This document shows positions 23,307 to 51,425 of a stretch of 64,000 nucleotides of DNA, piece by piece. A model generated the notes under the pieces. It did no database searches, was not told the origin of the DNA, and saw only the letters and a program-made list of their open reading frames with translations. The translations under genes were made by a program, and so were the position numbers. Where the stretch lies: contig CAWIIP010000004.1 in the NCBI GenBank assembly GCA_963836235.1, forward strand, positions 224,001-288,000, written 5' to 3'. This stretch comes from an uncultured Pseudomonadota bacterium (GTDB lineage Bacteria; Oederibacteriota; Muellerivitia; Muellerivitales; Muellerivitaceae). Numbering within the stretch: the stretch's first letter is position 1; each line of letters begins with the position of its first letter.

Positions 23307-23322
23307 TATGACTGAGGTCATA
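23307..23322. promoter_or_regulatory. Crp/Fnr-type box 1 (bidirectional adh/ppsA)
   Basis: TATGACTGAGGTCATA; -10-like TATCAT (+, 23344) and TAGGTT (-, 23285), each 21 bp from the box edge; second box CTTGATCCCTATCATG at 23335-23350. Confidence 0.8.
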
Positions 23323-23374
23323 CCTTGAGGTGGCCTTGATCCCTATCATGAAATCGAAAGCCTAAAAGAGGAGG

Positions 23375-25793
23375 ATGGTCATGGCGGATTCAAGCGAATG
23401 GGTGAAAAGATTCGAGGAAGTGGGTATGCGGGACATCCCGTTGGTGGGCGGCAAGAATGCCTCCCTGGGTGAAATGACACAAAATCTCGCGAAAGCGGGA
23501 GTGAAGGTGCCCGAAGGTTTTGCAATCACCTCCAAGGCCTATTGGGATATTTTGGAGCAAAACCGTTTAGAGGGCGCGCTGGATCACCTGGCCGCAGAAG
23601 CGGAAAAGAGCCCGAAAAAACTCAAGACCGTGGGAAAGGCCGCGCGGGGTCTCATGCTTCACGCCCAATTTCCCATGGAACTCACATTAGAAATTCGCCG
23701 TGCCTATCGGGACCTTTGCGAGAAAGCAGGGGACGGGAATTTGGCGGTGGCGGTGCGTTCGTCCGCTACCGCGGAGGATTTGCCGGACGCTAGCTTCGCG
23801 GGACAGCAAGAAACCTTCCTAAATGTCAGGGGGGAAAAGGCGTTGTTGGACGCCTGCCGAAAATGTTACGCCTCTCTCTTCACCGACAGGGCCATCAGTT
23901 ACCGCATCGAGAAGGGTTATTCTCACACGAAGGTGGCCCTGTCCATCGGCATCCAGCGGATGGTGCGCTCCGATATCGGAAGTTCAGGGGTCATGTTTTC
24001 CATCGATACTGACAGTGGCTTTCCCAAGGTCGTCCTCATCAACGCGGACTATGGACTGGGGGAAACAGTGGTACAGGGCGAGGTGGATCCGGACGAATAC
24101 ATGGTCTTCAAACCCCTTTTGGAAAATCCCGGATCTGATTCCTATTCTGGAAAAAAAGCGCGGGGGCAAGAAAGTCAAAATGGTTTACCGCCCGGGGGGA
24201 GAGGGCACCCAACTTAAAAAAACCAGTTCGAAAGAGCAAACGAGCACCGTATTGACCAATACGGAAATACTCCAATTGGCCAAGTGGGCCGTTCTGGTGG
24301 AAAAGCATTATGGCAAGCCCATGGATATGGAATGGGCCAAGGACGGGAAGACGGGGGAACTTTACATGGTTCAGGCCCGGCCTGAGACCGTCCAATCCCG
24401 CAAAAAGGCCGGGGTATTAAAGAAGTATAGTTTGAAGGAAAAAGGCCAAGTTCTTCTGACTGGAATGGCGGTCGGGGACGGCATCGCCTCGGGCCAAGTG
24501 TGCCGGGTGAAGAGCGCCAAGGAGATCGCCAAATTCAAGGAAGGTTCCATCCTCGTGGCCGAGATGACCGATCCGGACTGGGTGCCCATCATGAAAAAGG
24601 CCAAGGGCATCATCACGGACCATGGAGGCCGCACTTGCCACGCCGCCATCGTGAGCCGGGAGCTGGGCATCCCCGCGGTCGTGGGCACGGCCCGGGCGAC
24701 CCATATCCTCAAAAGCGGGCAACCGGTCACCCTTTCCTGTGCCGAAGGGCTGCAGGGCGAGGTGTATCAGGGTGAACTAGCCTTCGAGGAAAAGGAGATC
24801 CGGCTGGATCAAATGGCGGACACTCGGACGCAGATATTGATGAACATCGCCAGCCCCGACGCGGCTTTCCAGTGGTGGCACCTTCCGGTCAAGGGAATCG
24901 GCCTGGCCCGGATGGAATTCCTGGTAAGCGACACTATCAAAGTTCATCCCATGGCCCTAGTGAATTTCCAAAAGTTAAAGGACAAGAAAGCTAAACGGCA
25001 AATCGCCGAAATCACCCAAGGCTATAAAGATAAAACCGAATATTTCGTGGATAAGCTTGCCCGGGGACTTTGCCAAATCGCGGCTACCCAGTATCCCTAC
25101 CCGGTTATCGTGCGCTTGAGCGACTTCAAGACCAATGAATACGCCAACCTCATCGGCGGGGCGCCCTTCGAGCCAAAGGAGGAAAACCCCATGATCGGCT
25201 GGCGGGGCGCGTCCCGCTATTACAGCCCTGGCTACCAGCCGGGTTTCGAGCTGGAATGCAAGGCCTTGAAGCGGGCGAGGGAAGTGATCGGGCTGGACAA
25301 TATCGTTGTCATGGTGCCCTTCTGCCGGACCACGGGGGAAGCGGATAAGGTGTTGGCGGTCATGGAAAGCCAGGGGTTGAAGCGGGGGGAGAAGGGTTTG
25401 AAAGTTTACGTGATGTGCGAGATACCCGCCAACGTCATCATGGCCGAGGAATTCGCCAAGCGCTTTGACGGCTTTTCCATCGGTTCCAACGACCTGACCC
25501 AATTGACCCTGGGGGTGGACCGGGACTCGGGGGTCCTTAGCAAGCTTTTTGACGAGCAGGACGAGGCGGTCAAGCGTTCCATCGCGGAAGTCATCCGCCG
25601 CTGCAGGGCCACCGGCACCAAAATCGGCATCTGTGGCCAAGCCCCTAGCGATCATCCCGATTTCGCGGCTTTTTTGGTGGAATGTGGAATCGATTCCATT
25701 TCGCTCAATCCCGATTCGGTGGCGGCGGCTTTGAAAAGTGTGGCGGAACAGGAAGCGAAACAAGAGAAAGGCCGGGGGAAGGGGGCGGCATGA
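23375..25793 (+). CDS. ppsA: phosphoenolpyruvate synthase, split by a +1 frameshift at CCC 24128-24130 (probably sequencing error)
   Basis: VGGKNASLGE, RSSATAEDLPDASFAGQQET, GGRTCHAAI, FSIGSNDLTQL across two ORFs. Confidence 0.9.
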
Positions 25794-25936
25794 ATCGAGA
25801 TTGGCACTCGCGCCATAAAATGCCGAAAAAGCCGACTGTTGAGCAACGGAAACGATGGCATTTAGGTCACGCCGAACATTGCGGGTGCCGGCCCATTCCA
25901 CCGGGTTTGTTAAGGAAAGTTGGAAAGATGAAATAA
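25790..25936 (+). CDS. small His/Cys protein (WH...WH.HA.HC.CRPIP)
   Basis: ATG overlaps the ppsA stop; MNRDWHSRHKMPKKPTVEQRKRWHLGHAEHCGCRPIPP. Confidence 0.65.
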   Translation: MNRDWHSRHKMPKKPTVEQRKRWHLGHAEHCGCRPIPPGLLRKVGKMK

Positions 25937-25985
25937 CCGAGTCTGAGCCTTTGTGGTTCTTTTTGAAAAGTAAGAGGAGGCGGCT

Positions 25986-26792
25986 ATGAAAACTAAAATG
26001 GGAAGCCGATTCGGAAAGAAAATCGAGGACTGGATCGGAGAAGCTTGTTTTGGTTGCTTGGAAAATACCTATATTCCAAAAGCTTTGCAAAAGCAGGTAT
26101 CGAAACTTTTTAAAAGAAACAGAACTCAGTCCACCCCGAAACCCACCCCTTTAAAGGTTACGACCCGCCCGTTGAAAAACAAAGGGTTACTGGGAATAGG
26201 CTTGTTCATTTTTGGGGCGGCTTTAATCCCGTTCCGGTTATTGGCCCAGGAACTGGCGCCCAATCAAAAGTGGATTGAACAGGCCGACGCCGGTTTTGTC
26301 TTTCCCGTCAGTACCAATGTTTCATCGGTGTTCAATGTGGGCTTGGGGGGAGACATTCTGGTGGGCTATCGATTCGACCGCAATTTCAGCCTTTCCACGG
26401 ATTTGGGTTATTACGATTGTGACCAGAAGGGGCCTTCCGGCGCGGCGGCCGGGGAATGGATTTACGTGCCCTTAATGGAAGTGGCACGGTACAACTTCGG
26501 TTCCGGCAGGATCCGGCCATATGTCCTTTTGGGGACGGGCGTGGCTTTCAATAATTACCATGAAACCCTCATCAACCTGGGCCAAAGCCTGGACCTCAGC
26601 CGAGTGGGAACCGATTTTTTATTGTCTCCCGGCGCCGGGGTCTTGTTTGTGGTTTACAGCGACGCGGCCGTTTATCTCCAGGCGAGGATGGACATGAATT
26701 TCACGCCGAATAGAAGCTTAAGCAGCCCCGTGGTGGACAATCCGTCAATTTTTATTCCCGTCAAGGCGGGATTGAGCTTTTTCGTGCTCTGA
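25986..26792 (+). CDS. outer-membrane beta-barrel (OmpA-TM/OmpW-like)
   Basis: VGYRF, RPYVLLGTG, GAGV strands, internal signal-like segment. Confidence 0.7.
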   Translation: MKTKMGSRFGKKIEDWIGEACFGCLENTYIPKALQKQVSKLFKRNRTQSTPKPTPLKVTTRPLKNKGLLGIGLFIFGAALIPFRLLAQELAPNQKWIEQADAGFVFPVSTNVSSVFNVGLGGDILVGYRFDRNFSLSTDLGYYDCDQKGPSGAAAGEWIYVPLMEVARYNFGSGRIRPYVLLGTGVAFNNYHETLINLGQSLDLSRVGTDFLLSPGAGVLFVVYSDAAVYLQARMDMNFTPNRSLSSPVVDNPSIFIPVKAGLSFFVL

Positions 26793-26802: not shown

Positions 26803-26818
26803 TATGACTGCGGTCATA
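26803..26818. promoter_or_regulatory. Crp/Fnr-type box
   Basis: TATGACTGCGGTCATA; TAGGAT at 26840. Confidence 0.8.
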
Positions 26819-26871
26819 AAGGTTTTAGCCAAGCCGTCCTAGGATGAGGTTAAGGGAAGAAGAGGTGTTCC

Positions 26872-27213
26872 ATGGCGGATGAAAGAAACTCTTCGGAAAA
26901 AAGTCAAACCGGTTTTTTTCAGACGGCGGGGAAAGCCTTCGATTTTTTGGCCGCTATCCGGATTTTTTTCACCGAAATCAAGGAGTCGATCCTACAGCAT
27001 TGGGATTGGTTCCTTCGCCGGGTGGAGTATCTTTTTGTCGTTTATTTGTGGATTTCGGTCGGCATTCTTTTGATGGTCCTTGGAATATTCGACCTCTTAA
27101 TCGACTTCTGCCGGATCTCACGGGGAGTGGTATTTTCTCTCGGCGGATTGTTGATTTTACTGGTCGCGGTCATTTTTTTACAGGCGGCCAAGATGAAAAG
27201 ACGCGGAAAATAA
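26872..27213 (+). CDS. two-TM membrane protein (YqjE/holin-like)
   Basis: Two TM helices; next to a DUF883-like gene. Confidence 0.55.
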   Translation: MADERNSSEKSQTGFFQTAGKAFDFLAAIRIFFTEIKESILQHWDWFLRRVEYLFVVYLWISVGILLMVLGIFDLLIDFCRISRGVVFSLGGLLILLVAVIFLQAAKMKRRGK

Positions 27214-27230
27214 AATAAGAAGGGGGAATT

Positions 27231-27581
27231 ATGGCACTCAAGGAAAAGGCTTCGGCCGCGTGGAGCGAACTGAAGCAGAAATTGCAGGATAAGGAAAACC
27301 GGCGCAGGGTGAAAGAGGAGATTGAGAGGCGGTTGAAGCAGGGACGGGAGGCTTTTGACCGCGTCGAAAAGGAACTCAGGGATCCCGAGAATGAGGCGCG
27401 GTTGGAAAATAAATTATTTGACGCCCAGCGGAAATTGAAAAAAGCGAAGGCCGAATTCGCGAAGAAGAAGGCTGAAGCCGTCAATTACACCAAGGACAAT
27501 CCCGAAAAGGCGCTAGTGATCGCGGCGGCGGCGGGGGCCTTGGCGGGGGCTCTTTGGACAGTTTTAAAGCGAAAAAAATAG
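27231..27581 (+). CDS. ElaB/YqjD/DUF883-like tail-anchored protein
   Basis: Coiled coil then YTKDNPEKALVIAAAAGALAG.L. Confidence 0.7.
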   Translation: MALKEKASAAWSELKQKLQDKENRRRVKEEIERRLKQGREAFDRVEKELRDPENEARLENKLFDAQRKLKKAKAEFAKKKAEAVNYTKDNPEKALVIAAAAGALAGALWTVLKRKK

Positions 27582-27593
27582 GACGGTGGAACC

Positions 27594-27788
27594 ATGATGA
27601 AAAACGCGCATAAAAAGGAACCCCGATTCTCCGATGCGGATATTTTAAAGCCTGCGCATCATCAGTTGAGGGAAGCGGCTTATTACCGCTGGTTAGACCG
27701 GGGGATGCCTGAGGGGGAAGGACTGGAAGACTGGTACGAGGTGGAGAATAAGTGGAGGGACAATATCGTTCCTTCCCGAAATGATTAA
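27594..27788 (+). CDS. DUF2934 protein
   Basis: LREAAYYRWLDRGMPEG..LEDWYEVE. Confidence 0.85.
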   Translation: MMKNAHKKEPRFSDADILKPAHHQLREAAYYRWLDRGMPEGEGLEDWYEVENKWRDNIVPSRND

Positions 27789-27811
27789 AACAACTTTCAA
27801 AAAGGATCGGA

Positions 27812-28057
27812 GTGAATAACGTAGTAAGAAGCAAGGAGGATGTCATGACGATGATTAAAGAAAGAAAAACGGTGTCAAAGCATTTGGAGACGGGGAAGCC
27901 TGTGGAAAAGATGACCAAGGAAGATCTGGAAATGGCGGCTTATTTCCATTGGCTGGGCCGGGGATGCCCCAGCGACGACGCGCTTACCGATTGGATCGCC
28001 GTCGAAAAAAAATGGGGGCAGGAAGCTATTTCCGACAAAATGGACGTGCAGGCCTGA
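27812..28057 (+). CDS. DUF2934 protein
   Basis: AAYFHWLGRGCPSDDALTDWIAVE. Confidence 0.8.
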   Translation: MNNVVRSKEDVMTMIKERKTVSKHLETGKPVEKMTKEDLEMAAYFHWLGRGCPSDDALTDWIAVEKKWGQEAISDKMDVQA

Positions 28058-29161: not shown

Positions 29162-30370
29162 TTGAAGAAACAAAAGAAGGTCAAAAAACCAGTCGTTAAA
29201 GGACGAGCAAAACCCAAGTCCCTTTCAGGATTCAAGGAACTTCGTAAGGCCGGAGACCAGGTGGACCGGTTCAAAGGGGTCTTGGAAGCCGCGCCCGACG
29301 CCATGGTTATTGTGGGAAAGGATGGAAAGATCATCCTGGTGAACGCCCAGACCGAAATCCTTTTTGGTTACAACCGGGAGGAATTACTGGGCCAACGTAT
29401 CGAGATCCTCATCCCAGAGCGTTTTCGAGCCCATCATCCGGGCCAACGCGGCGGCTATTTTGTTTCCCCCAATGTAAGGCCCATGGGTCCGGGACTCGAT
29501 CTTTACGCCCTTCGGAAGGACGGGACTGAATTTCCGGCGGAAATCAGCCTGAGCCCGGTAGAGACACCGGATGGCATTTTTGCCACCGCCGCCATCCGGG
29601 ACATTACCGAGCGCAAAAGGCAAATGGAGGAAGAGAACCGGCGCATGCAGGAAGCCAGCCGCCTCAAGAGCGAGTTCCTGGCTAATATGTCCCATGAGCT
29701 CCGAACTCCCCTGAACGCCATCATCGGTTTTTCCGAACTGATGTACCATGAAAAGGTCGGCCCGGTTTCGGAAGAACACAAGGAATACCTGGGCGACATC
29801 CTCACCAGCGCCCGGCATCTTCTCCAGCTCATCAACGACGTGTTGGACCTGACCAAAGTGGAAGCAGGCAAGATGGAGTTCCGCCCTGAAGTCTTAGATT
29901 TAGTCAAAGTTGTCCGGGAAGTGAGGGACATCTTGAGGGGTCTGGCCAGCCCGAAAGGCATCCAAGTGGAAGTTCAAATCGACCCCCTCCTCACGAAAGT
30001 GGTCCTGGATGGTTCGAAATTCAAGCAAGTGCTTTATAACTACCTGTCCAATGCCCTCAAATTCACTCCTGATCAAGGGCGGGTAACCATTCACCTGAAC
30101 CCCCTCAACCAAACTATGTTTCGCCTCGAGGTAGAAGACACGGGCGTTGGCATCAAACCGGAAGATATCCACAAACTTTTCATCGAATTCCAGCAATTGG
30201 ACGCGGGTTCGGCCAAGAAATATGCCGGGACAGGCCTGGGGCTGGCCCTGACCAAACGAATCGTGGAGGCCCAGGGCGGGAAGGTGGGAGTTCGGAGCGA
30301 GTTTGGGAAAGGAAGCGTATTTTTCGCCGAATTCCCGATCGAAATGAAGGGGGTGTCCGGTGGCCGGTGA
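29162..30370 (+). CDS. PAS-domain sensor histidine kinase
   Basis: [36 protein letters not shown]. Confidence 0.95.
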
Positions 30371-32198: not shown

Positions 32199-32220
32199 AC
32201 TATGGCGTTAACGCCATAGT
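32199..32220. promoter_or_regulatory. putative enhancer (bEBP-binding palindrome)
   Basis: Perfect 22-bp palindrome ACTATGGCGTTAACGCCATAGT plus half-site CTATGGC at 32186. Confidence 0.55.
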
Positions 32221-32277: not shown

Positions 32278-32294
32278 CGGCATTGTCTTTGCTT
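32278..32294 (+). promoter_or_regulatory. sigma54 -24/-12 promoter
   Basis: CGGCATTGTCTTTGCTT = GG-N10-GC, ~50 bp before ATG 32344. Confidence 0.65.
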
Positions 32295-32343: not shown

Positions 32344-32748
32344 ATGCTGAACGAACCCATTCTTATCGTGGACGATAATTTGATGAACCTGAAACTCGAG
32401 AAAAGACTCCTAGAAGCGGAGAAATATCAGGTGCTCACGGCGCAAAACGCTGAAGAGACCATAAAGCTCCTGGAGTTTTTCCACCCTCGGCTGATCCTGA
32501 TGGATTTTCAATTGCCGGGTTTGGATGGCGTGGAACTTACCAAAAAAATAAGGTCAAATCCCGAATACCGGAAAATGGTCATCTTGATGGTGACCTCTAA
32601 CGACCAGCAGGGAGACGAAGCCAAGGCAAAAGCCGCGGGATGCGATGGTTACCTGCTCAAGCCCATCGATACCCAGGCTTTGCCGGCCATTATCGCAGGT
32701 TATTTGAGGGATGGGCATGGCACCGGCCAATCCGGGAACAAAAAATAA
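32344..32748 (+). CDS. single-domain response regulator (paralog of 30360)
   Basis: [29 protein letters not shown]. Confidence 0.9.
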   Translation: MLNEPILIVDDNLMNLKLEKRLLEAEKYQVLTAQNAEETIKLLEFFHPRLILMDFQLPGLDGVELTKKIRSNPEYRKMVILMVTSNDQQGDEAKAKAAGCDGYLLKPIDTQALPAIIAGYLRDGHGTGQSGNKK

Positions 32749-32790: not shown

Positions 32791-33489
32791 ATGCTGACTA
32801 TCAACAAGAACCGGACGACCTCATTTTCGGCAACGCCCCGCAGTTTTCTCGCCACGACGAATATCTTTAAAGCCGTTCCCGTTGAGGCTTTGAGGGAAAT
32901 TGAGCGCCGAGTGGTTGAGAAAAAATTCCTCAAGGGCGCGTCTCTTTTTCTGGAAGGCGATCCGGCCCAATATGTGTGGTTTGTCAAGGAAGGACATGTG
33001 AAGGCGGTCATCAACGCCCCCAATGGGCGCTGCCAGACCCTTTGCATGGTGGGCCCCCAAAATATGTTTGGCTCCTGCTGTTCTTTAAACGGGAACGCCT
33101 ACACTTGCAATGGGGTTGCCGAAACCGATGTCACCGTTGTTTCTTTCCCCCTGTCCGATTTCCTCGCTTTGATGGGGCGCTATCCCCAAATTTCCCTGGC
33201 CGTGGTGGCGCATGTTTCCAAGCGCCTACGTCATTCCAAGGACATGCAAGCCTTCGAACAGGAAAGCGTCGAAAAGCGAATCCTGCATGTTTTGGTGGAT
33301 ATGGTGGGGGAATTCGGGAACACCATACCTTTGACCCGCCGGGAGATCGCGGAAATGGCCGGCACGACCGTGGAAACTTCCATACGCACCTTTTCCAGGC
33401 TGGAGGGGGAGGGGCTGGTTTCCACCGTTCGCGGGAAAATCACCGTTAAAAGCCTTCAAGTCTTGAACGACTATTTGGAAAAGGAGTGA
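32791..33489 (+). CDS. Crp/Fnr-family transcriptional regulator
   Basis: cNMP-like barrel containing 5 Cys; HTH LTRREIAEMAGTTVETSIRTFSRL. Confidence 0.9.
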   Translation: MLTINKNRTTSFSATPRSFLATTNIFKAVPVEALREIERRVVEKKFLKGASLFLEGDPAQYVWFVKEGHVKAVINAPNGRCQTLCMVGPQNMFGSCCSLNGNAYTCNGVAETDVTVVSFPLSDFLALMGRYPQISLAVVAHVSKRLRHSKDMQAFEQESVEKRILHVLVDMVGEFGNTIPLTRREIAEMAGTTVETSIRTFSRLEGEGLVSTVRGKITVKSLQVLNDYLEKE

Positions 33490-34048: not shown

Positions 34049-34064
34049 TATGACAGGGATCATG
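34049..34064. promoter_or_regulatory. Crp/Fnr-type box
   Basis: TATGACAGGGATCATG; TAGGTT at 34086. Confidence 0.75.
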
Positions 34065-37502: not shown

Positions 37503-37567
37503 TATGACAGGGGTCATGTTGCGGACTACCGAATCCCGAACTTTGAAATTATATGAGCCCTGTCATG
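37503..37567. promoter_or_regulatory. two Crp/Fnr-type boxes in the SDR/ric divergent promoter
   Basis: TATGACAGGGGTCATG (37503) and TATGAGCCCTGTCATG (37552); CATCCT (-) and GATAAT (+) at the same spacing. Confidence 0.75.
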
Positions 37568-38902: not shown

Positions 38903-38918
38903 TATGATCGCTGTCACA
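38903..38918. promoter_or_regulatory. Crp/Fnr-type box (bidirectional)
   Basis: TATGATCGCTGTCACA; TATCCT (+, 38940) and TACCTT (-, 38881). Confidence 0.75.
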
Positions 38919-38955: not shown

Positions 38956-40744
<1,789 letters not shown>

Positions 40745-40748
<4 letters not shown>

Positions 40749-41032
40749 CGCCCCCCAAGGACGTGGAAAAACTCCAGACCCAAGTCCGCAAGGATGTTTC
40801 CCGGATCAAGGGGGCCGAAAAGAACCGGCCCACCTTGCTGGCCCAAACCGCCTACCTGGGAACCTTAGGGATCGTCATCGCCCTGCCCATCGTGGCGGGG
40901 GCCTATCTAGGACATTGGCTAGATGAGAAACTTTCCGGGTTTTCCTTCAGTTGGACGGTCTGCCTGATCGTCCTGGGGGTCTTTATCGGCGCGACCAACG
41001 CCTATTTCTTCATCCGGAGGGGGGAATCATGA
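40745..41032 (+). CDS. atpQ: AtpZ/AtpQ-like protein
   Basis: LGTLGIVIALPIVAGAYLGHWLD. Confidence 0.85.
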
Positions 41033-41724
41033 TGTCCACCGGCCTCTTTCAAGGTGTTCTCATTCATATTGGGGTTTTTCAAATCACCGGAAGCCTGGTG
41101 GTGACTTGGCTGATTATGGCCGTCCTCGCGGTGGCCGCTTGGGCCATGACCCGCCGGTTGAAGGACAGCCCCGGAAGCCTCCAGGCCGCCCTTGAGGCCG
41201 TGGTGACCTTGATCGAGGACGCGATCGAGGAGGTTTTGCCCGGCAAATCCAAGCTGGTTTTTCCCTTTGTGGCCACCTTGTGGATCTTCATCGGCCTGGC
41301 CAACCTGATCGGCCTGTTGCCGGGCTTCAGTTCCCCCACCGGCGACCTTTCGGTGACCGCAAGCCTCGCCTGCCTGGTTTTCCTCTCGGTCCATTGGTTC
41401 GGCATCCGGTCGGAGGGCTGGCTGGGGTACCTGAAACACTATACGAGCCCCAGCCCCGTCCTGATTCCCTTCGAGTTGATCAGCGAGTTTTCCAGGACCT
41501 TAGCCCTGGCGGTCAGGCTTTTCGGCAACGTGATGAGCCTGCAGATGGCGGCGGCCTTGGTGCTGATGGTGGCGGGGTTCCTGGTTCCCATACCGCTCTT
41601 AATGCTTCACATCATCGAGGCTGTGATTCAAGCATACCTCTTCGGGATGCTTGCCTTGATTTACATCGCCGGGGGTATTCAATCGCAGGAACTCCGGCAT
41701 CAAAAAGAAGGAGGAAAATCATGA
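41029..41724 (+). CDS. atpB: ATPase subunit a
   Basis: SRTLALAVRLFGN, IQAYLF..L...YI. Confidence 0.95.
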   Translation: MMSTGLFQGVLIHIGVFQITGSLVVTWLIMAVLAVAAWAMTRRLKDSPGSLQAALEAVVTLIEDAIEEVLPGKSKLVFPFVATLWIFIGLANLIGLLPGFSSPTGDLSVTASLACLVFLSVHWFGIRSEGWLGYLKHYTSPSPVLIPFELISEFSRTLALAVRLFGNVMSLQMAAALVLMVAGFLVPIPLLMLHIIEAVIQAYLFGMLALIYIAGGIQSQELRHQKEGGKS

Positions 41725-41990
41725 ATGGAATGACATGGGTTGTCGTCGTCTCAACGGTGGTGGCGGGGTTTGGAATCGCCCTGGGGGCGATGTTTCCGGC
41801 CCTGGCCATGGGAAAAGCCATCAGCCAGGCGCTGGACGCCCTCTCAAGGCAGCCGGAAGCGGAAAAGTCGATCACCCGAACTTTGTTCGTGGGATTGGCC
41901 ATGATCGAGTCGCTGACCATCTATTGCCTGGTGGTGGTGCTCATCATCCTTTTCCGCAACCCCCTGCTCCAGTACCTGCTGAAGCCGTAG
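41721..41990 (+). CDS. atpE: ATPase subunit c
   Basis: RQPEA, LAMIESLTIY. Confidence 0.95.
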   Translation: MNGMTWVVVVSTVVAGFGIALGAMFPALAMGKAISQALDALSRQPEAEKSITRTLFVGLAMIESLTIYCLVVVLIILFRNPLLQYLLKP

Positions 41991-42007
41991 GAAAAGCGAG
42001 GCCCTTC

Positions 42008-42754
42008 ATGGAATTTAATTGGACGACCTTTCTCTTGGAAACGGTCAATTTCCTGGTCCTGGTTTGGATCCTGGAGCGGTTTTTTTACGCCCCGGTGAAG
42101 CGCATCATCGCCGAAAGGCGGGGCGCGATCGAGAAAAAAATCGAGGACGCCGAAAAAACCCGGACCGACGCCGATGAACTGCGCTTGAAGTACGAAAACC
42201 GCCTGAAGGACTGGGAACAGGAAAAGGCCCGTCAAAGGGAAGACTTCCAAAAGGTAATGGATGAGGAGAAGAACCGGCAAATGAAACTGTTGAAGGATTC
42301 CCTTGGAAAGGAAAAAGAAAGGGTGGAAGCCAGGGAACAAAAGCGACTTTCCGAAATTCTGGAAAAAAATGAAAGGGAAGCCGTCCGGCAGTCCTTGAAA
42401 TTCCTCTCCCGCATTTTGGAGGCTTTGGCGTGCCCGGAAATCGAGTTAAAAATGATCGAGTTCACCCTGAGAGCCATTTCCGATAAGGACTCCAAGGAAG
42501 CCGGGTTGATTCGTTCGGGTTTCGCAGGCACCGGAACCGAAGTGGCGGTCAAATCCGCTTTTGTTTTGAACGAGGATTGGAGGAACCGGCTGGCGCAAGC
42601 CTTGAAGGCGGCCTTGGGGAGGGAAGTGAAAGTGCTTTTCGCGACGGCGCCGGAGCTTCTCGCCGGGCTCGAAGTGACTTGCGGTTCGGTGGTTTTACAG
42701 GCCAACCTGCGGGACGAATTGCGGGCTTTCGAGGGGGAGAGCGGCCATGAATGA
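42008..42754 (+). CDS. atpF: ATPase subunit b with delta-like C-terminus
   Basis: [20 protein letters not shown], coiled coil, PELLAGLEV. Confidence 0.9.
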
Positions 42755-44225
42755 CCTTGCCACGTCACCCTTATCCCGCCGTTCGGAGTGGATCGAAAGG
42801 TACCGTTTCGCGCCCAGGGCCAGGGAGGTCGGAAAGGTGGTTTCGGTGGGGGACGGCATCGTTTGGATCGAAGGGCTTCCCTCGGCGGCCATTGACGAGG
42901 TGCTGGACTTGGAAACCGGCGGTCATGGTCTGGTATTCCACCTGACTGAAAAACTGGTGGGGGCTATCCTGTTCAAACAAACCGAGAATCTTACGGCTGG
43001 GACGGGGGCCCGGCACGCGGCCCAGCGGCTGAAAATCCCGGTCGGGGACGCCCTTTTGGGGCGGGTGATCGATCCTTTGGGGATGCCCTTGGACGGGAAG
43101 GCTCCTCCCCTCTGTGAAGACGAAAATGAGATCGACGTCGCGTCGCCCCCCATCACCGCGAGGGATTTCGTGAACCGGCCTCTCCTGACGGGAAACAAGA
43201 TCATCGACGCCCTCATTCCCATCGGGAAGGGCCAACGCCAGCTTTTGATCGGCGACAACGGCTTGGGAAAAAGCTCCCTCGCCATTGATGCCGTGGCCAA
43301 CCAGAAGGGCAAGAACGTCTTGTGCGTTTACGTGCTGACCGGCCAAAAGCGCTCCAGCATCTTGAATACGATCCAAATGCTCAAGGACGCGGGAGCCTTG
43401 GACAACACGGTGCTGGTCGTCGGCGAAGCCACCGCCCTCCCGGGACTGCAATATATCGCGCCCTTCGCCGGATGCGCGGTGGCCGAATATTGGATGAGGC
43501 GGGGACGCGATACCTTGATCGTTTACGACGACTTGACGGCCCATGCCGACAGCTACCGGGAACTCTCCCTCCTTTTGCGAAGGCCGCCGGGGCGGGAGGC
43601 CTATCCCGCCGATATTTTTTTCCTGCATTCGAGGCTCTTGGAGCGGTCCACCTGCCTGTCCCCGGAATTAGGCGGGGGGAGCATGACCGCCCTGCCCATC
43701 ATCGAAACCAAGGAAGGGGAAATGGCTTCTTATATTCCCACCAACCTGGTTTCCATCACGGACGGCCAGATTTATTTTGACGCTGCCCTTTTTTCAGCCG
43801 GATTTTTGCCGGCCATTGACGTCACCAAGTCCGTTTCCCGGGTGGGCGGGGCGGCCCAGCCGAATGAAATCAAACTGGAAGCCGGGCGCATGAAGCTGGA
43901 TTACCTTCAATTCCTGGAACTGGAGGTTTTCACCCGTTTTGGCGCCAAGCTGGAGGCGGGTATGCAGAAAAAAATTAACCGGGGCCGCGTGCTGAGGGAA
44001 ATCCTCAAGCAAAGCCGCCTTACCCCGGTTTCGGTGGAATGCCAGATGGGCTGGCTTGTGGCATTCAACAACGGATTGTTGGATGGTGTCAGCCCGGAGG
44101 AAATCGGGGTTCAACTGGACCGTTTATTCCAATGGGTCGGCTCCCGGGAGTTGAAGCTTTCCGACTCCCGCGAAAGGTGGAGCGAGGTCCTGGCGGGTTG
44201 GAGAGGGGAAAAGGCGCCGCCATGA
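42747..44225 (+). CDS. atpA: N-type ATPase alpha subunit
   Basis: [29 protein letters not shown]. Confidence 0.95.
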
Positions 44226-45043
44226 GCAAACTTTCCGATCTCAAGGCCCAGCTCCATACCTTGGGGGAAATCAATAGCATCTTGAACGCGATGAAAAACC
44301 TTTCCATCGTGGAAATGACCAAAATTTCACGCCTCTTGGCTACCCAAAGGAAGGTGGCGGAAAGCATCCAGGAAGCCTTGGCGGATTTTGAGTCTTTTTA
44401 CGGAACATTAGGGTCAAACCCGCCTGGGGAAGGGTTGCTTTGCGTCCTGATCGGGTCCGAGCGGGGTTTTTGCGGCGGGTTCAATGAGAAGATCGCGGCC
44501 CATTTGGAAAAGGTGGGAGCCGGTTATCTGGCCGTGCGGATTTTGACGGTGGGCCGGAAACTCGCGCTGAAGTTTGAGGGGGACCCCCGGCTGGCGGGGA
44601 CGATGGAGGGGCCCAGCGCCGCTGAGGAAATTCCCGCGACCATCTCCACCCTTTGCGACCGGTTGAAGGACTTCCCCGGCTTCCGTTGGATGATCATTCA
44701 TAATGACGGGGGTGAGGCCAATCTGAAGACCCTGGAAACCTGTCCTTTGGAAGTCAGGGGCCAGGAACCCAAGGCCCTCTTTCCTTTTCCGCCGCTTTTG
44801 AACCTGCCTTCAAATGAACTGTACCCTTTATTGCTGGAACAGCACCTTTTCGCGGTGCTCTACAGCCTCTTTTACCTTTCTTTCATGGTCGAAAACCGGG
44901 AAAGGCTTCGCCACATGGAAGGCGCGCTGGGGAAAATCGAGAAGGATTGGAATCGGATGAAATTGCGGGCGAACGCCCTCAGGCAGGAAGGCATCACCGA
45001 GGAGTTGGAGATTATCCTCTTGAGCGCGGGAGACGGGCGGTGA
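44222..45043 (+). CDS. atpG: ATPase gamma subunit
   Basis: [29 protein letters not shown]. Confidence 0.9.
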
Positions 45044-45087: not shown

Positions 45088-45103
45088 TATGATGAGAGTC
45101 ATA
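45088..45103. promoter_or_regulatory. Crp/Fnr-type box
   Basis: TATGATGAGAGTCATA; TAGACT at 45125. Confidence 0.75.
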
Positions 45104-47179: not shown

Positions 47180-47195
47180 TGTGATTCCCATCATA
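47180..47195. promoter_or_regulatory. Crp/Fnr-type box upstream of the ncRNA
   Basis: TGTGATTCCCATCATA; TATCAA(T) at 47217. Confidence 0.65.
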
Positions 47196-47638: not shown

Positions 47639-47683
47639 ATTTATGGGCAACGACTCCAGGGTTCTTGCCTATAAAACCTCGAA

Positions 47684-47699
47684 TGTGACCCCGGTCATG
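47684..47699. promoter_or_regulatory. Crp/Fnr-type box
   Basis: TGTGACCCCGGTCATG; GAAAAT at 47721. Confidence 0.65.
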
Positions 47700-48502: not shown

Positions 48503-49170
48503 GCGAGCATTACGCCTGGGAAAAACCTTTCTTCAAAAACCGGGAGGAAGCGGCCGAGCTTCTATCCGGAAGGCTGGTGGATTACAAAGGGCAAAATCCC
48601 TTAGTATTGGCCATTCCCCGGGGAGCGGTACCGATGGGTCGGATTATTGCCGATAGCTTGGGCGGGGAATTGGACTTGGTCCTCGTTCACAAGGTGGGGT
48701 CGCCCGAAAATCCGGAATCGGCCTTGGGGGCGGTGGGGGAAAACGGGGAATTTTACGAGGCGCCCTTTGCCCGGTCCTTGGGCTTTTCGGAAGAATCGCT
48801 TCAAAAAGAAATTCGGATTCAAACCGAAGCCTTAAAACAAAAACGAAAGTTTTATCTTCCCGGCAAGCCCATTTACAAAGCGGAAGGGAGGGTGGTCATC
48901 CTGATGGATGATGGAATCGCCACGGCTTCCACCGTCATGGCCGCCATCCGGGATATTCGCCACAAAGGGCCCTTAAAGGTGGTGGTGGCCTCGCCCGTAG
49001 CGCCCCCGGAAGCCGTGAATATCATCCGCCAGGAGGCCGATGAGTTGGTGATATTGACCGTCCAAACCGATTTCGCGATGGTCAGTGAATTTTTCGAGGA
49101 CTTCCGGCAGGTAAGCGACGAGGAAGTGTTAAAAAACCTAAAAAGCGTGGCGTCCTCTATCGGAAAATAA
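48499..49170 (+). CDS. phosphoribosyltransferase paralog
   Basis: LAIPRGAVP, VILMDDGIATAST. Confidence 0.9.
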   Translation: MSEHYAWEKPFFKNREEAAELLSGRLVDYKGQNPLVLAIPRGAVPMGRIIADSLGGELDLVLVHKVGSPENPESALGAVGENGEFYEAPFARSLGFSEESLQKEIRIQTEALKQKRKFYLPGKPIYKAEGRVVILMDDGIATASTVMAAIRDIRHKGPLKVVVASPVAPPEAVNIIRQEADELVILTVQTDFAMVSEFFEDFRQVSDEEVLKNLKSVASSIGK

Positions 49171-49207: not shown

Positions 49208-50332
49208 TCAATTATTCACCGATTCCCTGGCCGCGAGGATTTCAGCGGGAACATAAGAACAAAAGGGGTCGGCGCCCATCACATCCCCGGTCAAGGCGTA
49301 GGCCCTGGCTCTGGAGCCGCCGCAAAGGCGGCGGTATTCACATCTTCCGCATTTGCCATTGAGGGAGTCCGTGTCCCGCAGTTTTTGAAAGAGGGGGCTT
49401 TCCCGGTAAATCTCGTTCAGGGGCTGGTCCTTCACGTTGCCGGCGGAAAGGGGCAGGAAACCGCTGGGGCAAACATCCCCCTTGTGGGAAATAAAAACGA
49501 ACCCCCGGCCATCACCCACCCCACGGGCGGTCCTCAAGAGAACCGGATCGGGTTGAAACTTCAGGGCTTCGGGAAGCTCCCGGGGCGTTATTCCATAATT
49601 CTGGAGGATCACCCTGCGAAAATGGTGGGCCTCGGTGGTTTTGATGTCGAACCAATTCATCTTCAAGATGTCATAAAGTTGGTTCAACACCTTTTCGGTT
49701 TCCTTGGCGTTCAAGGCTTGGCTTTTTTGCGCGCGGCCCGTTGGGACCAAGAAAAAAACAGACCATAGGGCGATGGAGAAGGGAACGATGGCCCTCGAGA
49801 TATCCCAAACCTGGCCCTGGTTGTGACGGCTAATGGTGGTGTTGATTTGAAGCTGGATGCCCAGTTCCCGGATTTGGCGGGAGGCTTCCAAAAACCGGTC
49901 AAAAGTCCCGGGGACGCCCCGGAAAGCGTCAAAGGTGGCGGCGTCGGCTCCATCCAGGGAAAGGGAAATGCGGCTCAAGCCCGCGTCCCGTAATTCCTTG
50001 AGACGGTCATAAGTTAAAAGCGGAGTGATGGAGGGGGCCAAGGCGAAGTTCATCCCGCGTTTAGCGCATTCCTTGACCAGCCGGGTCAAGTCCGGCCGTT
50101 TTAAGGGGTCCCCGCCGGTCATGACGAAAAGGGGGACACCCCAGTCGGCCAACTGGCGGATCAAATCGAGGGCCTGCTTGGTATCGAGTTCACCGGGATA
50201 GATTTGGGATTGGGCTTCGGCCCGACAATGCACGCAGGCCAAATCGCAGGCCCTCGTCGCTTCCCAAATGGCGATATAGGGGCGGTCGGCGTAACGGGCG
50301 GAAGGTTTTTGTAAGGTGGAGGATTTTTCCAT
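49208..50332 (-). CDS. radical SAM/SPASM protein (AhbC/D-NirJ-like)
   Basis: WEATRACDLACVHCRA, TGGDPL, CGRCEY..CGGSRARAY..DP.C. Confidence 0.9.
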   Translation of the reverse strand: MEKSSTLQKPSARYADRPYIAIWEATRACDLACVHCRAEAQSQIYPGELDTKQALDLIRQLADWGVPLFVMTGGDPLKRPDLTRLVKECAKRGMNFALAPSITPLLTYDRLKELRDAGLSRISLSLDGADAATFDAFRGVPGTFDRFLEASRQIRELGIQLQINTTISRHNQGQVWDISRAIVPFSIALWSVFFLVPTGRAQKSQALNAKETEKVLNQLYDILKMNWFDIKTTEAHHFRRVILQNYGITPRELPEALKFQPDPVLLRTARGVGDGRGFVFISHKGDVCPSGFLPLSAGNVKDQPLNEIYRESPLFQKLRDTDSLNGKCGRCEYRRLCGGSRARAYALTGDVMGADPFCSYVPAEILAARESVNN

Positions 50333-50402
50333 TTTGAGCTCCTATGTGTTGAAGGGTTATCAACAGGTTTCAATTAATTTAAGGGACTAAAGGAGCCGCC
50401 AG

Positions 50403-50418
50403 TATGATGCCCGTCATA
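50403..50418. promoter_or_regulatory. Crp/Fnr-type box
   Basis: TATGATGCCCGTCATA; TAAATT (-, 50381). Confidence 0.75.
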
Positions 50419-50478
50419 ATCCGAGTTCCGAAGCGGTGTTGAGATGATCATGGAATGTAAATAAAAAGGCGGGAAAAC

Positions 50479-51414
50479 ATGCGAAAAAGTAAGGGCGATT
50501 CGTGGGTTCCGTCCGATGTTTTACGGGAAGTTCGGGGCGTCCTCCTCCTTGTCTTGGGCCTTAACCTGACGATTTGCGTCGGCAAGTTGATAGTAGGTTG
50601 GTCCGTGGCCTCCCTTTCTATGGTGGCCGATGGTTTTCATTCCCTGATGGATGCCATGGCCAATGGGTTGGGTTTGGCCAGCGTATGGATCGCCGCAAAA
50701 CCCGCCGACAAAGACCACCCTTATGGTCATCAAAAGTTTGAGGTTTTGGCGGCCCTGGGAACGGCGGTTTTGATGGGGGTGGCCTGCGTTGAGATTTTGG
50801 CGGACGCCTTGAGGCATCTTGGAACAGCTGCGGCCTTGCCCCACCCTAGTCCGCTTTCTTTTTTCGTTATGGGAGGAACGATGGTCATCAATGGCTGGAT
50901 CTCCTGGTACGAGTCCCGGAAGGGCCAGAAACTCCAAAGCCCCCTTCTGGCGGCAGATAGCGCCCACAACGGAAGCGACTTGCTTTCATCGGCTTCGGTC
51001 TTGGCCGCTTTGGCGGGAGCAAAACTGGGTTGGGGTTGGGCCGATTTGGGAGCGGCTGTCCTAGTGGTGGCAGTGGTAGGGAGGGCTGCTTGGGGAATAT
51101 TAAACCAGGCCCAGCAGGTTTTGGCCGACCACATCATGGTGGACCCCGCTCGGGTTATTCGGGCCGTCAAGGCCGTACGGGGAATCCTTTCCTGCAACAA
51201 GGTGAGGAGCCGTGGAATGCCGGGAAATGTTTTCGTGGATCTGCATGTCCAGGTATCGCCCCGATTAACCACCTTGAAGGCCCACGGCCTCACCCATCAG
51301 GCGATGGAAGCGGTCAAAAGGGCCGTTCCGGGAGTTAAAGAGGTTTTCGTCCATACCGAACCTCCCGAACTGCCTTCGAAATTAAGGAAATCCGCGGGGA
51401 TACCTCATCTATGA
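50479..51414 (+). CDS. cation diffusion facilitator (FieF-like)
   Basis: ADGFHSLMD, PADKDHPYGHQKFE, DLHVQV, VHTEP. Confidence 0.92.
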   Translation: MRKSKGDSWVPSDVLREVRGVLLLVLGLNLTICVGKLIVGWSVASLSMVADGFHSLMDAMANGLGLASVWIAAKPADKDHPYGHQKFEVLAALGTAVLMGVACVEILADALRHLGTAAALPHPSPLSFFVMGGTMVINGWISWYESRKGQKLQSPLLAADSAHNGSDLLSSASVLAALAGAKLGWGWADLGAAVLVVAVVGRAAWGILNQAQQVLADHIMVDPARVIRAVKAVRGILSCNKVRSRGMPGNVFVDLHVQVSPRLTTLKAHGLTHQAMEAVKRAVPGVKEVFVHTEPPELPSKLRKSAGIPHL

Positions 51415-51425
51415 TTCGCGTCATA
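51410..51425. promoter_or_regulatory. Crp/Fnr-type box
   Basis: TATGATTCGCGTCATA; TTTAAT at 51448. Confidence 0.7.

Follow-up and report, generated by a model that had tools for sequence, protein, structure and literature searches.

In the 64,000-nucleotide stretch of DNA analysed here (the window), a recurring palindrome, TATGAY-N4-RTCATA, is probably bound by Crp/Fnr activators of a lineage-specific clade, which would place a low- or no-oxygen programme under two-tier control. The palindrome is real and occurs far above chance, and within the family the box is conserved along with the regulator and the target genes. The boxes have the position of an FNR-type activator site and precede genes for fermentation, alternative respiration and survival of stress. 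We regard the system as an FNR-like low-oxygen regulon of a known kind, in which the box and the sensor protein are unusual and a further layer of control is added.

The palindrome and its promoters

In the window there are 7 matches to the strict form TRTGAY-N4-RTCAYA versus 0.02 expected, and none of 100 shuffles reached that count. The 3.97-Mb genome contains 20 strict matches versus 0 for the pattern read backwards, and spacer lengths of 0-10 other than 4 yielded 0-3 matches each. The core, TGA-N6-TCA, is that of Crp/Fnr sites. ATGAY-N4-RTCAT is intergenic in 20 of 44 genomic cases, compared with 6 of 42 for the classical TTGAY-N4-RTCAA.

An earlier note had listed 12 intergenic palindromes, 10 of which hold. 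Seven match TRTGAYNNNNRTCAYA exactly (23307, 26803, 38903, 45088, 47180, 50403 and 51410). A scoring matrix built from the 20 genome-wide strict matches, whose scores are thus partly circular, was applied to the 12 listed sites and gave these seven 17.2-24.0 bits. The sites at 34049, 37503 and 47684, where a terminal G replaces A, scored 13.5-14.0 bits, and 37552 is weak (8.9 bits). The listed CTTGATCCCTATCATG (23335..23350) is no site: it scores 0.1 bits and overlaps the -10 element of the ppsA promoter served by the 23307 box. Genome-wide, 59 matches reach at least 12 bits, and 36 of them lie outside crude ORFs (longest-ORF calls, covering ~90% of the DNA); among matches of at least 18 bits, 17 lie outside and 4 inside. 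The boxes and their neighbouring genes are as follows.

22164..23240, minus strand: Zn-dependent alcohol dehydrogenase, adh (Pfam ADH_N, ADH_zinc_N)
23307..23322: box TATGACTGAGGTCATA, common to the divergent adh and ppsA promoters; strict, 20.8 bits; TATCAT at 23344-23349 (plus) and TAGGTT at 23280-23285 (minus), each 21 nt away
23375..25793, plus strand: PEP synthase, ppsA (NCBIfam PEP synthase), split between two frames by a 1-nt shift near 24128 (N-terminal part in ORF 23375-24217, remainder in ORF 23823-25793)
26803..26818: box TATGACTGCGGTCATA; strict, 24.0 bits; TAGGAT at 26840-26845
26872..28057, plus strand: small-protein operon: one membrane protein, one coiled-coil protein anchored at its C-terminus, and two DUF2934 proteins (27594-27788, 33.9 bits, above cut-off; 27812-28057, weak, 18.5 bits, below cut-off); DUF883_C matches only faintly, at 27231-27581
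34049..34064: box TATGACAGGGATCATG, before the DUF2249 gene 34121-34420 (Pfam); 13.5 bits; TAGGTT 21 nt off on either side
37503..37518: box TATGACAGGGGTCATG, before the short-chain dehydrogenase gene 36646-37437 (minus strand; Pfam adh_short); 13.9 bits; poor -10, CATCCT
37552..37567: weak box TATGAGCCCTGTCATG, before the Ric gene; 8.9 bits; TGAG half-site, variants of which recur in relatives; GATAAT at 37589-37594
37643-38377: Ric gene, whose product we take to be a di-iron Fe-S repair protein (NCBIfam FeS_repair_RIC, 154.7 bits, below the cut-off of 204.7; Pfam ScdA_N and Hemerythrin)
38903..38918: box TATGATCGCTGTCACA, before the alternate (N-type) F-ATPase operon; strict, 17.2 bits; TATCCT at 38940-38945
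38977..45043, plus strand: N-type ATPase operon, with beta, epsilon, ATPase_gene1, a, b, alpha and gamma subunits (Pfam); top NCBIfam model alt_F1F0_F1_bet, 582 bits, below the cut-off of 752
45088..45103: box TATGATGAGAGTCATA, before a MacB-type ABC transporter gene (ATG at 45147, end at 47120); strict, 20.0 bits; TAGACT at 45125-45130
47180..47195: box TGTGATTCCCATCATA, without a clear downstream gene; strict, 18.8 bits; TATCAA at 47217-47222; plus-strand ORFs after it are all at most 59 aa, and an Rfam match is absent there
47684..47699: box TGTGACCCCGGTCATG, before two tandem phosphoribosyltransferase-domain genes, 47786-49170 (Pfam Pribosyltran twice); 14.0 bits; poor -10, GAAAAT
50403..50418: box TATGATGCCCGTCATA, between a radical SAM/SPASM gene (49208-50332, minus strand; TIGR04053, 444 bits, above cut-off) and a cation-efflux gene (50479-51414, plus strand); strict, 22.5 bits; TAAATT on the minus side, poor TGAGAT on the plus side
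51410..51425: box TATGATTCGCGTCATA, before the NMO-family flavoprotein gene 51514-52632; strict, 23.4 bits; TTTAAT at offset 22

Of 58 oriented box-gene instances, 21 have a TAnnnT hexamer starting at offset 21 from the box; no other offset between 10 and 34 has more than 3. Offset 21 corresponds to class II (-41.5) geometry, as the earlier note had proposed. The window hexamers are TATCAT, TAGGTT, TAGGAT, TAGGTT, TATCCT, TAGACT, TATCAA and TAAATT. The hexamers at 37503 (minus), 37552, 47684, 50403 (plus) and 51410 are poorer; all of these except the one at 37552, like the strong 47180 box with no gene behind it, speak against the reading we favour. Of the two boxes said to work in both directions, 23307 is confirmed and 50403 is plausible only. 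Start codons mostly lie 56-113 nt after the box centres. With its centre 29.5 nt before a weak TAnnnT -10, the box would sit at -41.5 and leave a -35 element without room, so that a dimer bound there would recruit RNA polymerase, like FNR at class II promoters.

The Crp/Fnr regulator and its sigma-54 promoter

The window contains a Crp/Fnr regulator gene that stands behind a conserved sigma-54 promoter and adjoins genes for a FixL-like kinase and an NtrC-type activator, an arrangement new here.

29162..30370, plus strand: histidine kinase with a FixL-like PAS (Pfam PAS, HisKA, HATPase_c)
30360-30743, plus strand: stand-alone receiver (Pfam Response_reg)
30727-32142, plus strand: NtrC-type sigma-54 activator (Pfam Sigma54_activat, AAA_lid_14, HTH_8)
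32200..32219: palindrome CTATGGCGTTAACGCCATAG, candidate upstream site of the sigma-54 activator
32278..32293, plus strand: sigma-54-type promoter CGGCATTGTCTTTGCT, GG-N10-GC, 52 nt ahead of the receiver gene
32344..32748, plus strand: stand-alone receiver (Pfam Response_reg), 43 nt ahead of the regulator gene
32791..33489, plus strand: Crp/Fnr regulator (Pfam cNMP_binding, 68 bits; HTH_Crp_2), helix TVETSIR

TGGCA-N7-TTGC lies 56-80 nt ahead of the start codon in all 11 genomes examined, and a similar TATGGCG-N4-6-CGCCATA was found by eye in the same place in 10 of the 11. The receiver-crp gene pair is kept in 10 relatives, and rpoN is located at C5:123290. The kinase PAS matches FixL haem-PAS chains (E ~1e-16), with a His aligned to the FixL His column and retained in all 8 orthologs. 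The FixL distal Arg is not kept, which makes haem binding and O2 sensing by the kinase uncertain. In the first tier of the mechanism we propose, the haem-PAS kinase and the NtrC-type activator would drive the sigma-54 promoter of the receiver-regulator pair. In the second, the regulator would turn on the box promoters, two of which belong to genes for paralogous regulators.

The regulator has the VETSIR helix and the five Cys residues described earlier (81, 85, 96, 97 and 106; C85-x10-C96C97-x8-C106), but it is one of four paralogs sharing the helix VET[SC]IR among seven Crp/Fnr-type matches in the genome, six of them above the Pfam cut-off. It reached no NCBIfam equivalog level. Among 123 homologs, C85, C96, C97 and C106 are kept in 121-122 and V-E-T-[CS]-I-R is invariant. 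The helix E-T-x-I-R is not clade-specific, since it occurs in 95 of 128 distant representatives, and thus the helix alone fails to explain the A in the box. Alignment to 4ev0 places the four Cys at and beside the F-G-E...R-S-A cassette, in which the regulator has Ser and Tyr at the positions of Glu and Arg. As judged from this alignment, the four Cys, invariant in the close family, occupy the former cAMP pocket in place of its cAMP-binding residues, a feature also new here. Through them the regulator probably senses a second input, with an Fe-S cluster or a metal as the likely ligand.

Extent of the boxes and conservation in the family

All 7 strict window sites fall within 23307-51425, a block that the earlier note had called self-contained at ~30 kb. 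That description does not hold: the boxes run for ~70 kb on C4, with satellites on C1 (412997-425176) and C2. Genome-wide, 12 of 20 strict and 21 of 59 matrix matches lie in C4:247307-315951 (window 23307 to ~91950 in numbering extended past its end), a stretch longer than the 30-kb block. The island is two-part and covers C4:246-317 kb, with its first 31 kb in the window. The strongest box of the genome (25.1 bits) precedes the Crp/Fnr paralog at C4:316000; this gene and the paralog gene at C1:414931 have their own upstream boxes, at distances of 56 nt and 73 nt. Box-carrying genes include two Ric genes, several hemerythrins, DUF2249, a nitroreductase and the NMO-family gene, and GGDEF genes are also among the targets. 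Ric, the hemerythrins and the nitroreductase suit NO or redox stress equally with low oxygen.

Among 24 family genomes (G001-G024), regulator and strict motif are both present in 19, neither in 2, the regulator only in 2 (G007 and G011, which have no strict TATGAY...RTCATA site) and the motif only in 1. The motif-only genome is 63% complete. By hand sums, 23 family genomes hold 147 strict versus 0 control sites, and 68 genomes of other families 66 versus 44. Boxes lie beside regulator homologs in G012, G022, G016, G021, G010, G024, G018 and G013. In orthologs, boxes were found for HK2 (6/7), YceI (4/4), NMO (2/2), rSAM (2/2), hemerythrin (4/7) and Rieske (2/3) but not for the operon-internal genes RR1 (0/8) and EBP (0/10); these counts are biased, because related loci were picked for regulator or motif matches, and kin are not independent. 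The box lies 72 nt upstream of adh and 54 nt upstream of the first gene after the 26803 box in their G023 orthologs, and in the same position at the MacB-type transporter ortholog in G001. A close N-type ATPase beta subunit (E<=1e-150) is missing from 29 of 30 other family genomes.

Alternative explanations and physiology

The position of the regulator gene amid the seven strict window sites would fit control of a self-contained ~30-kb block by this one protein alone. We consider this improbable: the matches reach C4:315951, with others on C1 and C2, the helix is common to four paralogs, one of which has the strongest box of the genome, and in G016, G021 and G010 the only close regulator copy found is of the box-preceded type. 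It is still less probable that the palindromes are sites of another type of regulator, or a dispersed repeat, with Crp/Fnr genes nearby by coincidence. Other dimeric regulators also bind 16-bp palindromes, the island contains TetR, GerE and response-regulator genes, and we infer Crp/Fnr binding from the boxes; against this stand the TGA-N6-TCA core with its fixed 4-base spacer, the exact class II distance and the co-location and co-occurrence of boxes and regulator across genera, and the repeat version is disfavoured because flanks and spacer bases are not conserved.

A CRP-like cyclic-nucleotide receptor, with a regulon following carbon or energy status, would agree with the cNMP_binding match, the GGDEF targets and the cAMP-type Crp proteins that are the best solved relatives of the regulator. 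We hold this to be very unlikely in view of the Ser and Tyr opposite the Glu and Arg of the 4ev0 cassette, the four conserved Cys in that region, a CRP equivalog score of 45 bits versus a cut-off of 266, and only three TGTGA-N6-TCACA sites in the genome. The same architecture could respond instead to nitric oxide, nitrosative stress or general redox or Fe-S damage, in a role like that of HcpR, DNR or NnrR, which we regard as unlikely. The boxes at the Ric, hemerythrin, DUF2249, nitroreductase and NMO-family genes speak for it; a Cys-bound cluster would react with NO, one source auto-names homologs "nitrogen oxide reductase regulator", and the closest published motif, TTGACnnnnGTCAA, is that of HcpR (PMC1274295). 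However, hcp was not found in the 99.4%-complete genome, the qNor-like gene (a 760-aa COX1-family ORF) adjoins a different Crp/Fnr paralog, with helix REVVSR and flanking GTGAC-N4-GTCAC boxes, and fermentation, respiration and ATPase genes make up the majority of targets. Stand-alone universal stress proteins are typical of known hypoxia regulons; none was found in this genome, which has a single Usp domain within a 901-aa ORF. These absences, together with the placement of the qNor-like gene, disfavour a DosR-like or NO-specific reading.

The closest published analogue of the low-oxygen regulon that we favour is the lxa locus of Burkholderia cenocepacia. According to PMC3721108, low oxygen induces this locus of 50 genes, which carries a TGA-N6-TCA motif at 17 intergenic positions; it is alike in gene content (Zn-ADHs, nitroreductase, 2-nitropropane dioxygenase, alpha-crystallin, Zn protease, cytochromes and regulators). 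This content, the core, the class II distance and the neighbouring Crp/Fnr genes here and in relatives support the interpretation of the earlier note in part.

The host, an uncultivated soil bacterium, has genes for an A-family haem-copper oxidase and for cytochrome bd. Predicted targets comprise alcohol dehydrogenases, PEP synthase, ADP-forming acetyl-CoA synthetase, an ATP-driven N-type ATPase, a Rieske/cytochrome b complex with c-type cytochromes, an outer-membrane haem protein, hemerythrins, Ric proteins, Hsp20, O2-dependent di-iron enzymes, transporters and signalling proteins. Taken together, we read them as a programme that would let an otherwise aerobic respirer live with little or no oxygen.

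A palindromic box at putative class II promoters

The strict form of the 16-bp palindrome TATGAY-N4-RTCATA, TRTGAYNNNNRTCAYA, occurs 7 times in the window against 0.02 expected, and none of 100 shuffles got to 7. The window spans C4:224001-288000 of the genome; genome-wide (3.97 Mb in five contigs, 99.4% complete) there are 20 strict matches, 12 of them on contig C4 from 247307 to 315951. Spacer controls with 0-3 or 5-10 bases between the same half-sites gave 0-3 matches, and the backwards pattern gave none. A symmetric matrix derived from the 20 strict matches returned 59 sites of at least 12 bits in the whole genome, of which 36 fell outside crude longest-ORF gene calls that occupy ~90% of the sequence. 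With the threshold raised to 18 bits, 17 sites lay outside ORFs and 4 inside, and at least two of these four are artefacts of crude start codons. An earlier note had placed 12 boxes in the window; seven strict sites (17.2-24.0 bits) and three with a terminal G (13.5-14.0 bits) stand, 37552 is weak (8.9 bits), and 23335 is no site (0.1 bits).

We scanned all matrix matches with a gene start 20-350 nt away (58 oriented instances) for the hexamer TAnnnT, counting the offset past the 16-mer. The hexamer stood at offset 21 in 21 of the 58 instances, versus at most 3 at any other offset between 10 and 34. Therefore, the box centre lies 29.5 nt upstream of the hexamer's first base. If the hexamer is a -10 element spanning -12 to -7, that centre falls at -41.5, as FNR and CRP sites do at class II promoters. 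The box occupies the position of the -35 element, and TAGGAT, TAGGTT, TATCCT, TAGACT and similar hexamers are imperfect -10s, as expected for activator-dependent promoters. From this spacing, putative transcript starts can be placed at the box promoters; a search of sequencing runs found no RNA run for this DNA. Palindromes with the TGA-N6-TCA core of Crp/Fnr targets are thus found at promoters in silico, and at that level the class II reading of the earlier note is well supported.

The base outside the TGA is A (or G) here but T in FNR. In the genome, 20 of 44 ATGAY-N4-RTCAT matches are intergenic, versus 6 of 42 for the classical TTGAY-N4-RTCAA, which is near the genome's non-coding share. 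This intergenic enrichment of the A-form therefore indicates a real preference for A (less often G) outside TGA. The FNR-type box TTGAT-N4-ATCAA (TTGATNNNNATCAA) occurs 9 times in the genome and the CRP box TGTGA-N6-TCACA 3 times. The classical FNR box was also tried as an alternative motif, and was over-represented inside coding DNA only. In FNR, the Ser of the recognition helix E-T-I-S-R is held to read that T, and the order E-T-[S/C]-I-R found here may be the cause of the A-for-T change. The same E-T-x-I-R helix is frequent in distant unstudied relatives. Literature searches on the box matched only an HcpR paper and a katA paper, and those on recognition-helix strings returned surnames and nothing on the helix.

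The box is kept within the family. TATGAYNNNNRTCATA was found in 27 of 31 family genomes, with a reversed control of 0 in all except one. In a phylum-wide sample (sums made by hand), 23 family genomes held 147 sites against 0 for the control, and 68 others held 66 against 44. Boxes lay 50-100 nt ahead of first-gene orthologs for HK2 (6/7), YceI (4/4), NMO (2/2), rSAM (2/2), hemerythrin (4/7) and Rieske (2/3), counts that illustrate a pattern and are no test, coming from 28 stretches of 16 related genomes picked for regulators or motif matches. Operon-internal genes in these relatives had no boxes ahead. The regulator itself, encoded at window 32791-33489 (+), was present in 21 of 24 family genomes (E<=1e-20), and other families of the phylum held distant relatives only (28-33% identity). 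A separate contig search for related loci found only 3 distant relatives (24-32% identity).

Extent and content of the island

The block at window 22164-53074, within which the earlier note placed a self-contained regulon, is only the first segment of a larger island. It is followed by a box-free stretch with small toxin-antitoxin-like genes, a cupredoxin/rubrerythrin operon and an IS30-like transposase; boxes then restart at C4:289912 and end at C4:315951, directly ahead of a second Crp/Fnr gene. In total, 21 matrix matches lie within 69 kb of C4, and boxes also occur on contigs C1 and C2.

Box-bearing regions beyond the first segment
C4:289912-315951, second segment: Rieske/cytochrome b complex and c-type cytochromes
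Second segment: fatty-acid desaturase and AurF-like di-iron protein
Second segment: hemerythrin and GGDEF protein
Second segment: ABC-2 transporters and a YceI/porin-like pair
Second segment: histidine kinase
Second segment: further Zn-dependent alcohol dehydrogenase
Second segment: ADP-forming acetyl-CoA synthetase fused to a GNAT domain
C1:412997-425176, smaller cluster: two more paralogous regulators, Hsp20, hemerythrin, radical SAM protein, nitroreductase and third Zn-dependent alcohol dehydrogenase, with FtsH close by
C2, single sites: ahead of a SulP transporter and a GGDEF gene, or near a second Ric gene

Several features mark the DNA in and around these regions. Touching the left edge of the island, window 15080-21848 carries a TraG-like ATPase, SpoVG-like and excisionase-like genes and a tyrosine integrase in low-GC DNA, and looks like an integrated mobile element. 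The island is broken by CopG/DUF6364-type small genes and an IS30-like transposase (window 55819-58957; C4:288782-289762), and Mutator-family transposases lie on both sides of the C1 cluster (C1:403480-404700 and C1:427810-429078). In ppsA, one extra base amid short homopolymers (window 24110-24141) splits the gene over two frames, and the cause may lie in the assembly, in decay to a pseudogene or in a programmed shift; a search for public contigs over 24046-24233 found none. Between the MacB gene and the PRTase genes, ~590 nt lack a convincing ORF (window 47180-47786); a strong box opens this stretch, with TATCAA correctly spaced from it, so that a small RNA or small protein may be encoded there; Rfam gave no match at E<=0.1 over 20000-56000.

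Some gene products deserve separate mention. A box-bearing gene on the minus strand (C4:294985-296241; 6985-8241 of the fetched stretch L004) encodes a 418-aa protein with a signal peptide, one CXXCH at residue 36, a long beta-rich body and an FF end, and is followed by two cytochrome c genes and the Rieske/cytochrome b complex. The single N-terminal CXXCH is present in 47 of 48 full-length homologs, all unnamed, and we take the build to resemble that of Cyc2-type fused cytochrome-porins. At C4:310506-312750 (L005:3506-5750), a YceI-domain gene precedes a gene for a 478-aa secreted beta-rich protein with an F end and no family match. The genome yielded a single Usp domain, within a 901-aa ORF (C2:1959797-1962667) that has a box (17.2 bits) 166 nt upstream. 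At C2:1359352-1362961, a Crp/Fnr paralog with the helix REVVSR adjoins a 760-aa COX1-family ORF, qNor-like in size; a GTGACTYAAGTCAC palindrome lies on each flank of the pair, and the locus resembles an NO-type regulon of its own.

Four regulator paralogs and a proposed sigma-54 tier

The genome contains seven Crp/Fnr-type matches, six of them above the Pfam cut-off. The window's protein has both Crp/Fnr domains (PF00027, 68 bits, cut-off 27.5; PF13545, 51.7 bits, cut-off 27) and belongs to a group of four that share the helix T-V-E-T-[S/C]-I-R, the other members (C4:316000-316695, C1:402363-403106 and C1:414931-415665) being 42-63% identical to it. Control by one local Crp/Fnr protein, as first proposed, is thus wrong. 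The protein reached no NCBIfam equivalog (best 45 bits vs cut-offs of 211-300), scoring 31.3 bits with Fnr (NF008365, cut-off 228), 45 bits with CRP (NF008732, cut-off 266) and 45 bits with FixK (cut-off 300). Its nearest solved relative is a Thermus Crp-family protein (E 2e-17), and the DNA-binding domain alone matched no solved structure at E<=0.01.

We examined 123 homologs, comprising 120 database proteins (the window's own included) and the three paralogs. V-E-T-[C/S]-I-R varies little or not at all. Cys85, Cys96, Cys97 and Cys106 are conserved in 121-122 of the 123, the exceptions being the two C1 paralogs, and Cys81 in 63. In the cyclic-nucleotide domain family, the F-G-E...R-S-A cassette is the phosphate-binding site. 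Against this cassette in the structure 4ev0, Cys96 and Cys97 come after F-G, Cys106 stands opposite Ala, and Ser95 and Tyr104 stand opposite the Glu and Arg, so that the Glu/Arg-Ser signature of a CRP cassette is not preserved. The cysteines thus take the place of pocket residues.

In FNR proper, the [4Fe-4S] ligands are an N-terminal Cys cluster and one central Cys. The window's protein, in contrast, has cysteines only at 81, 85, 96, 97 and 106, with four conserved ones in the beta-roll pocket and none ahead of residue 81. We infer that these four hold a metal or an Fe-S cluster, although they may instead serve as a disulfide switch or as a structural zinc site. Among 1.84 billion representative proteins, only 29 clusters matched at E<=1e-30. 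The Cys pattern occurs in 7 of the 128 listed representatives (<=450 residues) and the E-[T/S]-x-I-R helix in 95; therefore, the Cys motif is rare but the helix is not.

The genes that precede the regulator point to a further level of control.

Genes of the proposed upstream tier (window coordinates)
29162-30370: PAS kinase
30727-32142: NtrC-type sigma-54 activator
32344-32748: stand-alone receiver
32791-33489 (+): Crp/Fnr regulator

The regulator gene begins 43 nt past the stand-alone receiver gene. Upstream of this pair come a 200-nt gap and then the sigma-54 activator, a receiver and the PAS kinase. The gap contains CGGCATTGTCTTTGCT (GG-N10-GC) 52 nt upstream of the receiver gene and, 59 nt farther upstream, the palindrome CTATGGCGTTAACGCCATAG at window 32200-32219. 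This sigma-54 promoter was conserved in 11 of 11 genomes examined, 56-80 nt from the start codon, and the palindrome in 10 of 11; rpoN is present in the genome. A scan with TGGC-N7-TTGC gave 4 window matches against 2.4 expected and missed the actual site, which starts CGGC and was found on reading the DNA. Over its full length, the kinase's PAS domain is similar to the haem-PAS chains of FixL (E ~1e-16). The second His of its R-A-H-H-P motif, retained by all 8 orthologs, falls in the FixL His column, the position of the proximal haem ligand in FixL, and the distal Arg column holds Leu.

The conserved promoter, the FixL-like kinase and the gene order therefore lead us to propose a cascade, in which the kinase would act on the sigma-54 activator, the activator would drive the receiver and the regulator, and these would in turn act on the box promoters, including those of the paralogs at C4:316000 and C1:414931. 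In three relatives (G009, G005 and G020; stretches L036, L037 and L038), a box overlaps the sigma-54 promoter (TGTGAC-TGGCATCACA-TTTGC), an arrangement absent from the source genome, which suggests negative autoregulation of the receiver-regulator pair in some genera.

Known circuits, the signal and the biology of the lineage

Escherichia coli FNR and Pseudomonas ANR act as dimers on a TGA...TCA palindrome with a 4-base spacer at -41.5 and control oxygen-related regulons. The system described here shares the palindrome, spacer and position, keeps the Glu and Arg of the helix, and would also serve an oxygen-related regulon. In the FixLJ-FixK cascade of rhizobia, a haem-PAS kinase stands above a Crp/Fnr gene in a two-tier oxygen cascade. 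Here, a kinase with a FixL-like PAS domain lies upstream of a Crp/Fnr regulator gene, whose product would act on box promoters; however, in place of FixJ with its LuxR-type HTH stands an NtrC-type activator paired with a sigma-54 promoter, the regulator has a putative Cys sensor of its own, and the distal Arg of FixL is absent. DosR of Mycobacterium tuberculosis, a LuxR-type response regulator with another motif, governs a hypoxia/NO survival programme, and PRTase-domain genes, according to the earlier note, belong to its regulon. A programme of this kind is proposed here as well, but the regulators are not homologous, the motifs differ and DosR's universal stress proteins have no stand-alone counterpart here.

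HcpR1 of delta-proteobacteria and cyanobacteria is FNR-like and was predicted by comparative genomics, with the motif wyTTGACnnnnGTCAArw (Rodionov et al. 2005; PMC1274295); it shares with our system the GAC-N4-GTC core and hemerythrin- and cytochrome-like targets. Our box has A for T ahead of TGAC, the regulon is much larger and differs in content, and hcp (PF03063), the core target of HcpR, was not found in the 99.4% complete genome.

The closest parallel in logic and much of the content is the lxa locus of Burkholderia cenocepacia, which is induced at low oxygen and required for anoxic survival (Sass et al. 2013; PMC3721108). The predicted regulon resembles that locus: in an aerobe, tens of genes lie physically together with a Crp/Fnr-type gene among them, a TGA-N6-TCA inverted repeat recurs in many of the intergenic gaps, and a few loci elsewhere would be co-regulated. 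Common content comprises Zn-dependent alcohol dehydrogenases, nitroreductase, 2-nitropropane dioxygenase (NMO), alpha-crystallin (Hsp20), an FtsH-type Zn protease (here in the C1 cluster), cytochromes, two-component systems and an ATP-yielding acetate branch. In contrast to lxa, our system belongs to another phylum, uses TATGAY-N4-RTCATA, has no stand-alone universal stress proteins, and carries an ADP-forming acetyl-CoA synthetase instead of AckA-Pta. It also has an N-type ATPase, PEP synthase, a PRTase pair, Ric, hemerythrins, the Rieske/cytochrome b complex, and four paralogous regulators with a sigma-54 tier.

The genome has A-family haem-copper oxidase and cytochrome bd genes, so the organism respires oxygen. 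Box genes encode fermentative and ATP-yielding steps, the N-type ATPase and an alternative electron chain, together with oxygen-binding and Fe-S repair proteins, oxygen-dependent di-iron enzymes and small stress proteins. A low-oxygen programme is plausible; NO or redox stress as the signal is a serious rival. Literature searches pairing N-ATPase with hypoxia returned no regulation data, and those pairing FixK with ppsA, ADH and PRTase nothing useful. The N-type ATPase presumably works as an ATP-driven pump, and 29 of 30 other family genomes lack a close relative of its beta subunit (E<=1e-150). Since N-ATPases are also described as laterally transferred (PMC2881411), this seems to be a newly acquired operon wired into the regulon.

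The cysteine pocket and the sigma-54/FixL-like tier could go beyond known kinds of circuit. Taken to its full extent, in a tentative reading that we consider less likely than not, the regulator would represent an undescribed Crp/Fnr sensor class, whose C-x10-CC-x8-C motif holds an Fe-S cluster or metal in the cyclic-nucleotide pocket and which is made only when the haem-PAS kinase and the sigma-54 activator allow. This two-input switch would govern a ~70-kb low-oxygen island, into which a Cyc2-like outer-membrane cytochrome-porin and an N-type ATPase gained by lateral transfer have been drawn. An FNR-like circuit would thereby be coupled to microoxic iron/electron exchange in a soil lineage that is uncultivated.

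For the Crp/Fnr family, the box departs from the FNR, CRP and HcpR boxes by one defined base and offers a clean case of a specificity shift; the Cys motif, should it bind a cluster in what was once the cAMP pocket, would be a new mode of signal sensing; and by setting an FNR-like regulator beneath a FixL-like kinase and sigma-54, the locus combines two textbook oxygen circuits in an unusual way. No member of this soil lineage has been cultured, and these data provide for it a testable regulatory map of co-responding genes, promoters and proteins. Should low oxygen induce the regulon, its gene content would hint at the way in which these bacteria maintain a membrane potential in wet, oxygen-poor soil, with roles for the acetate branch that yields ATP, the N-type ATPase as an ATP-driven enzyme, and the outer-membrane haem protein together with a bc complex.
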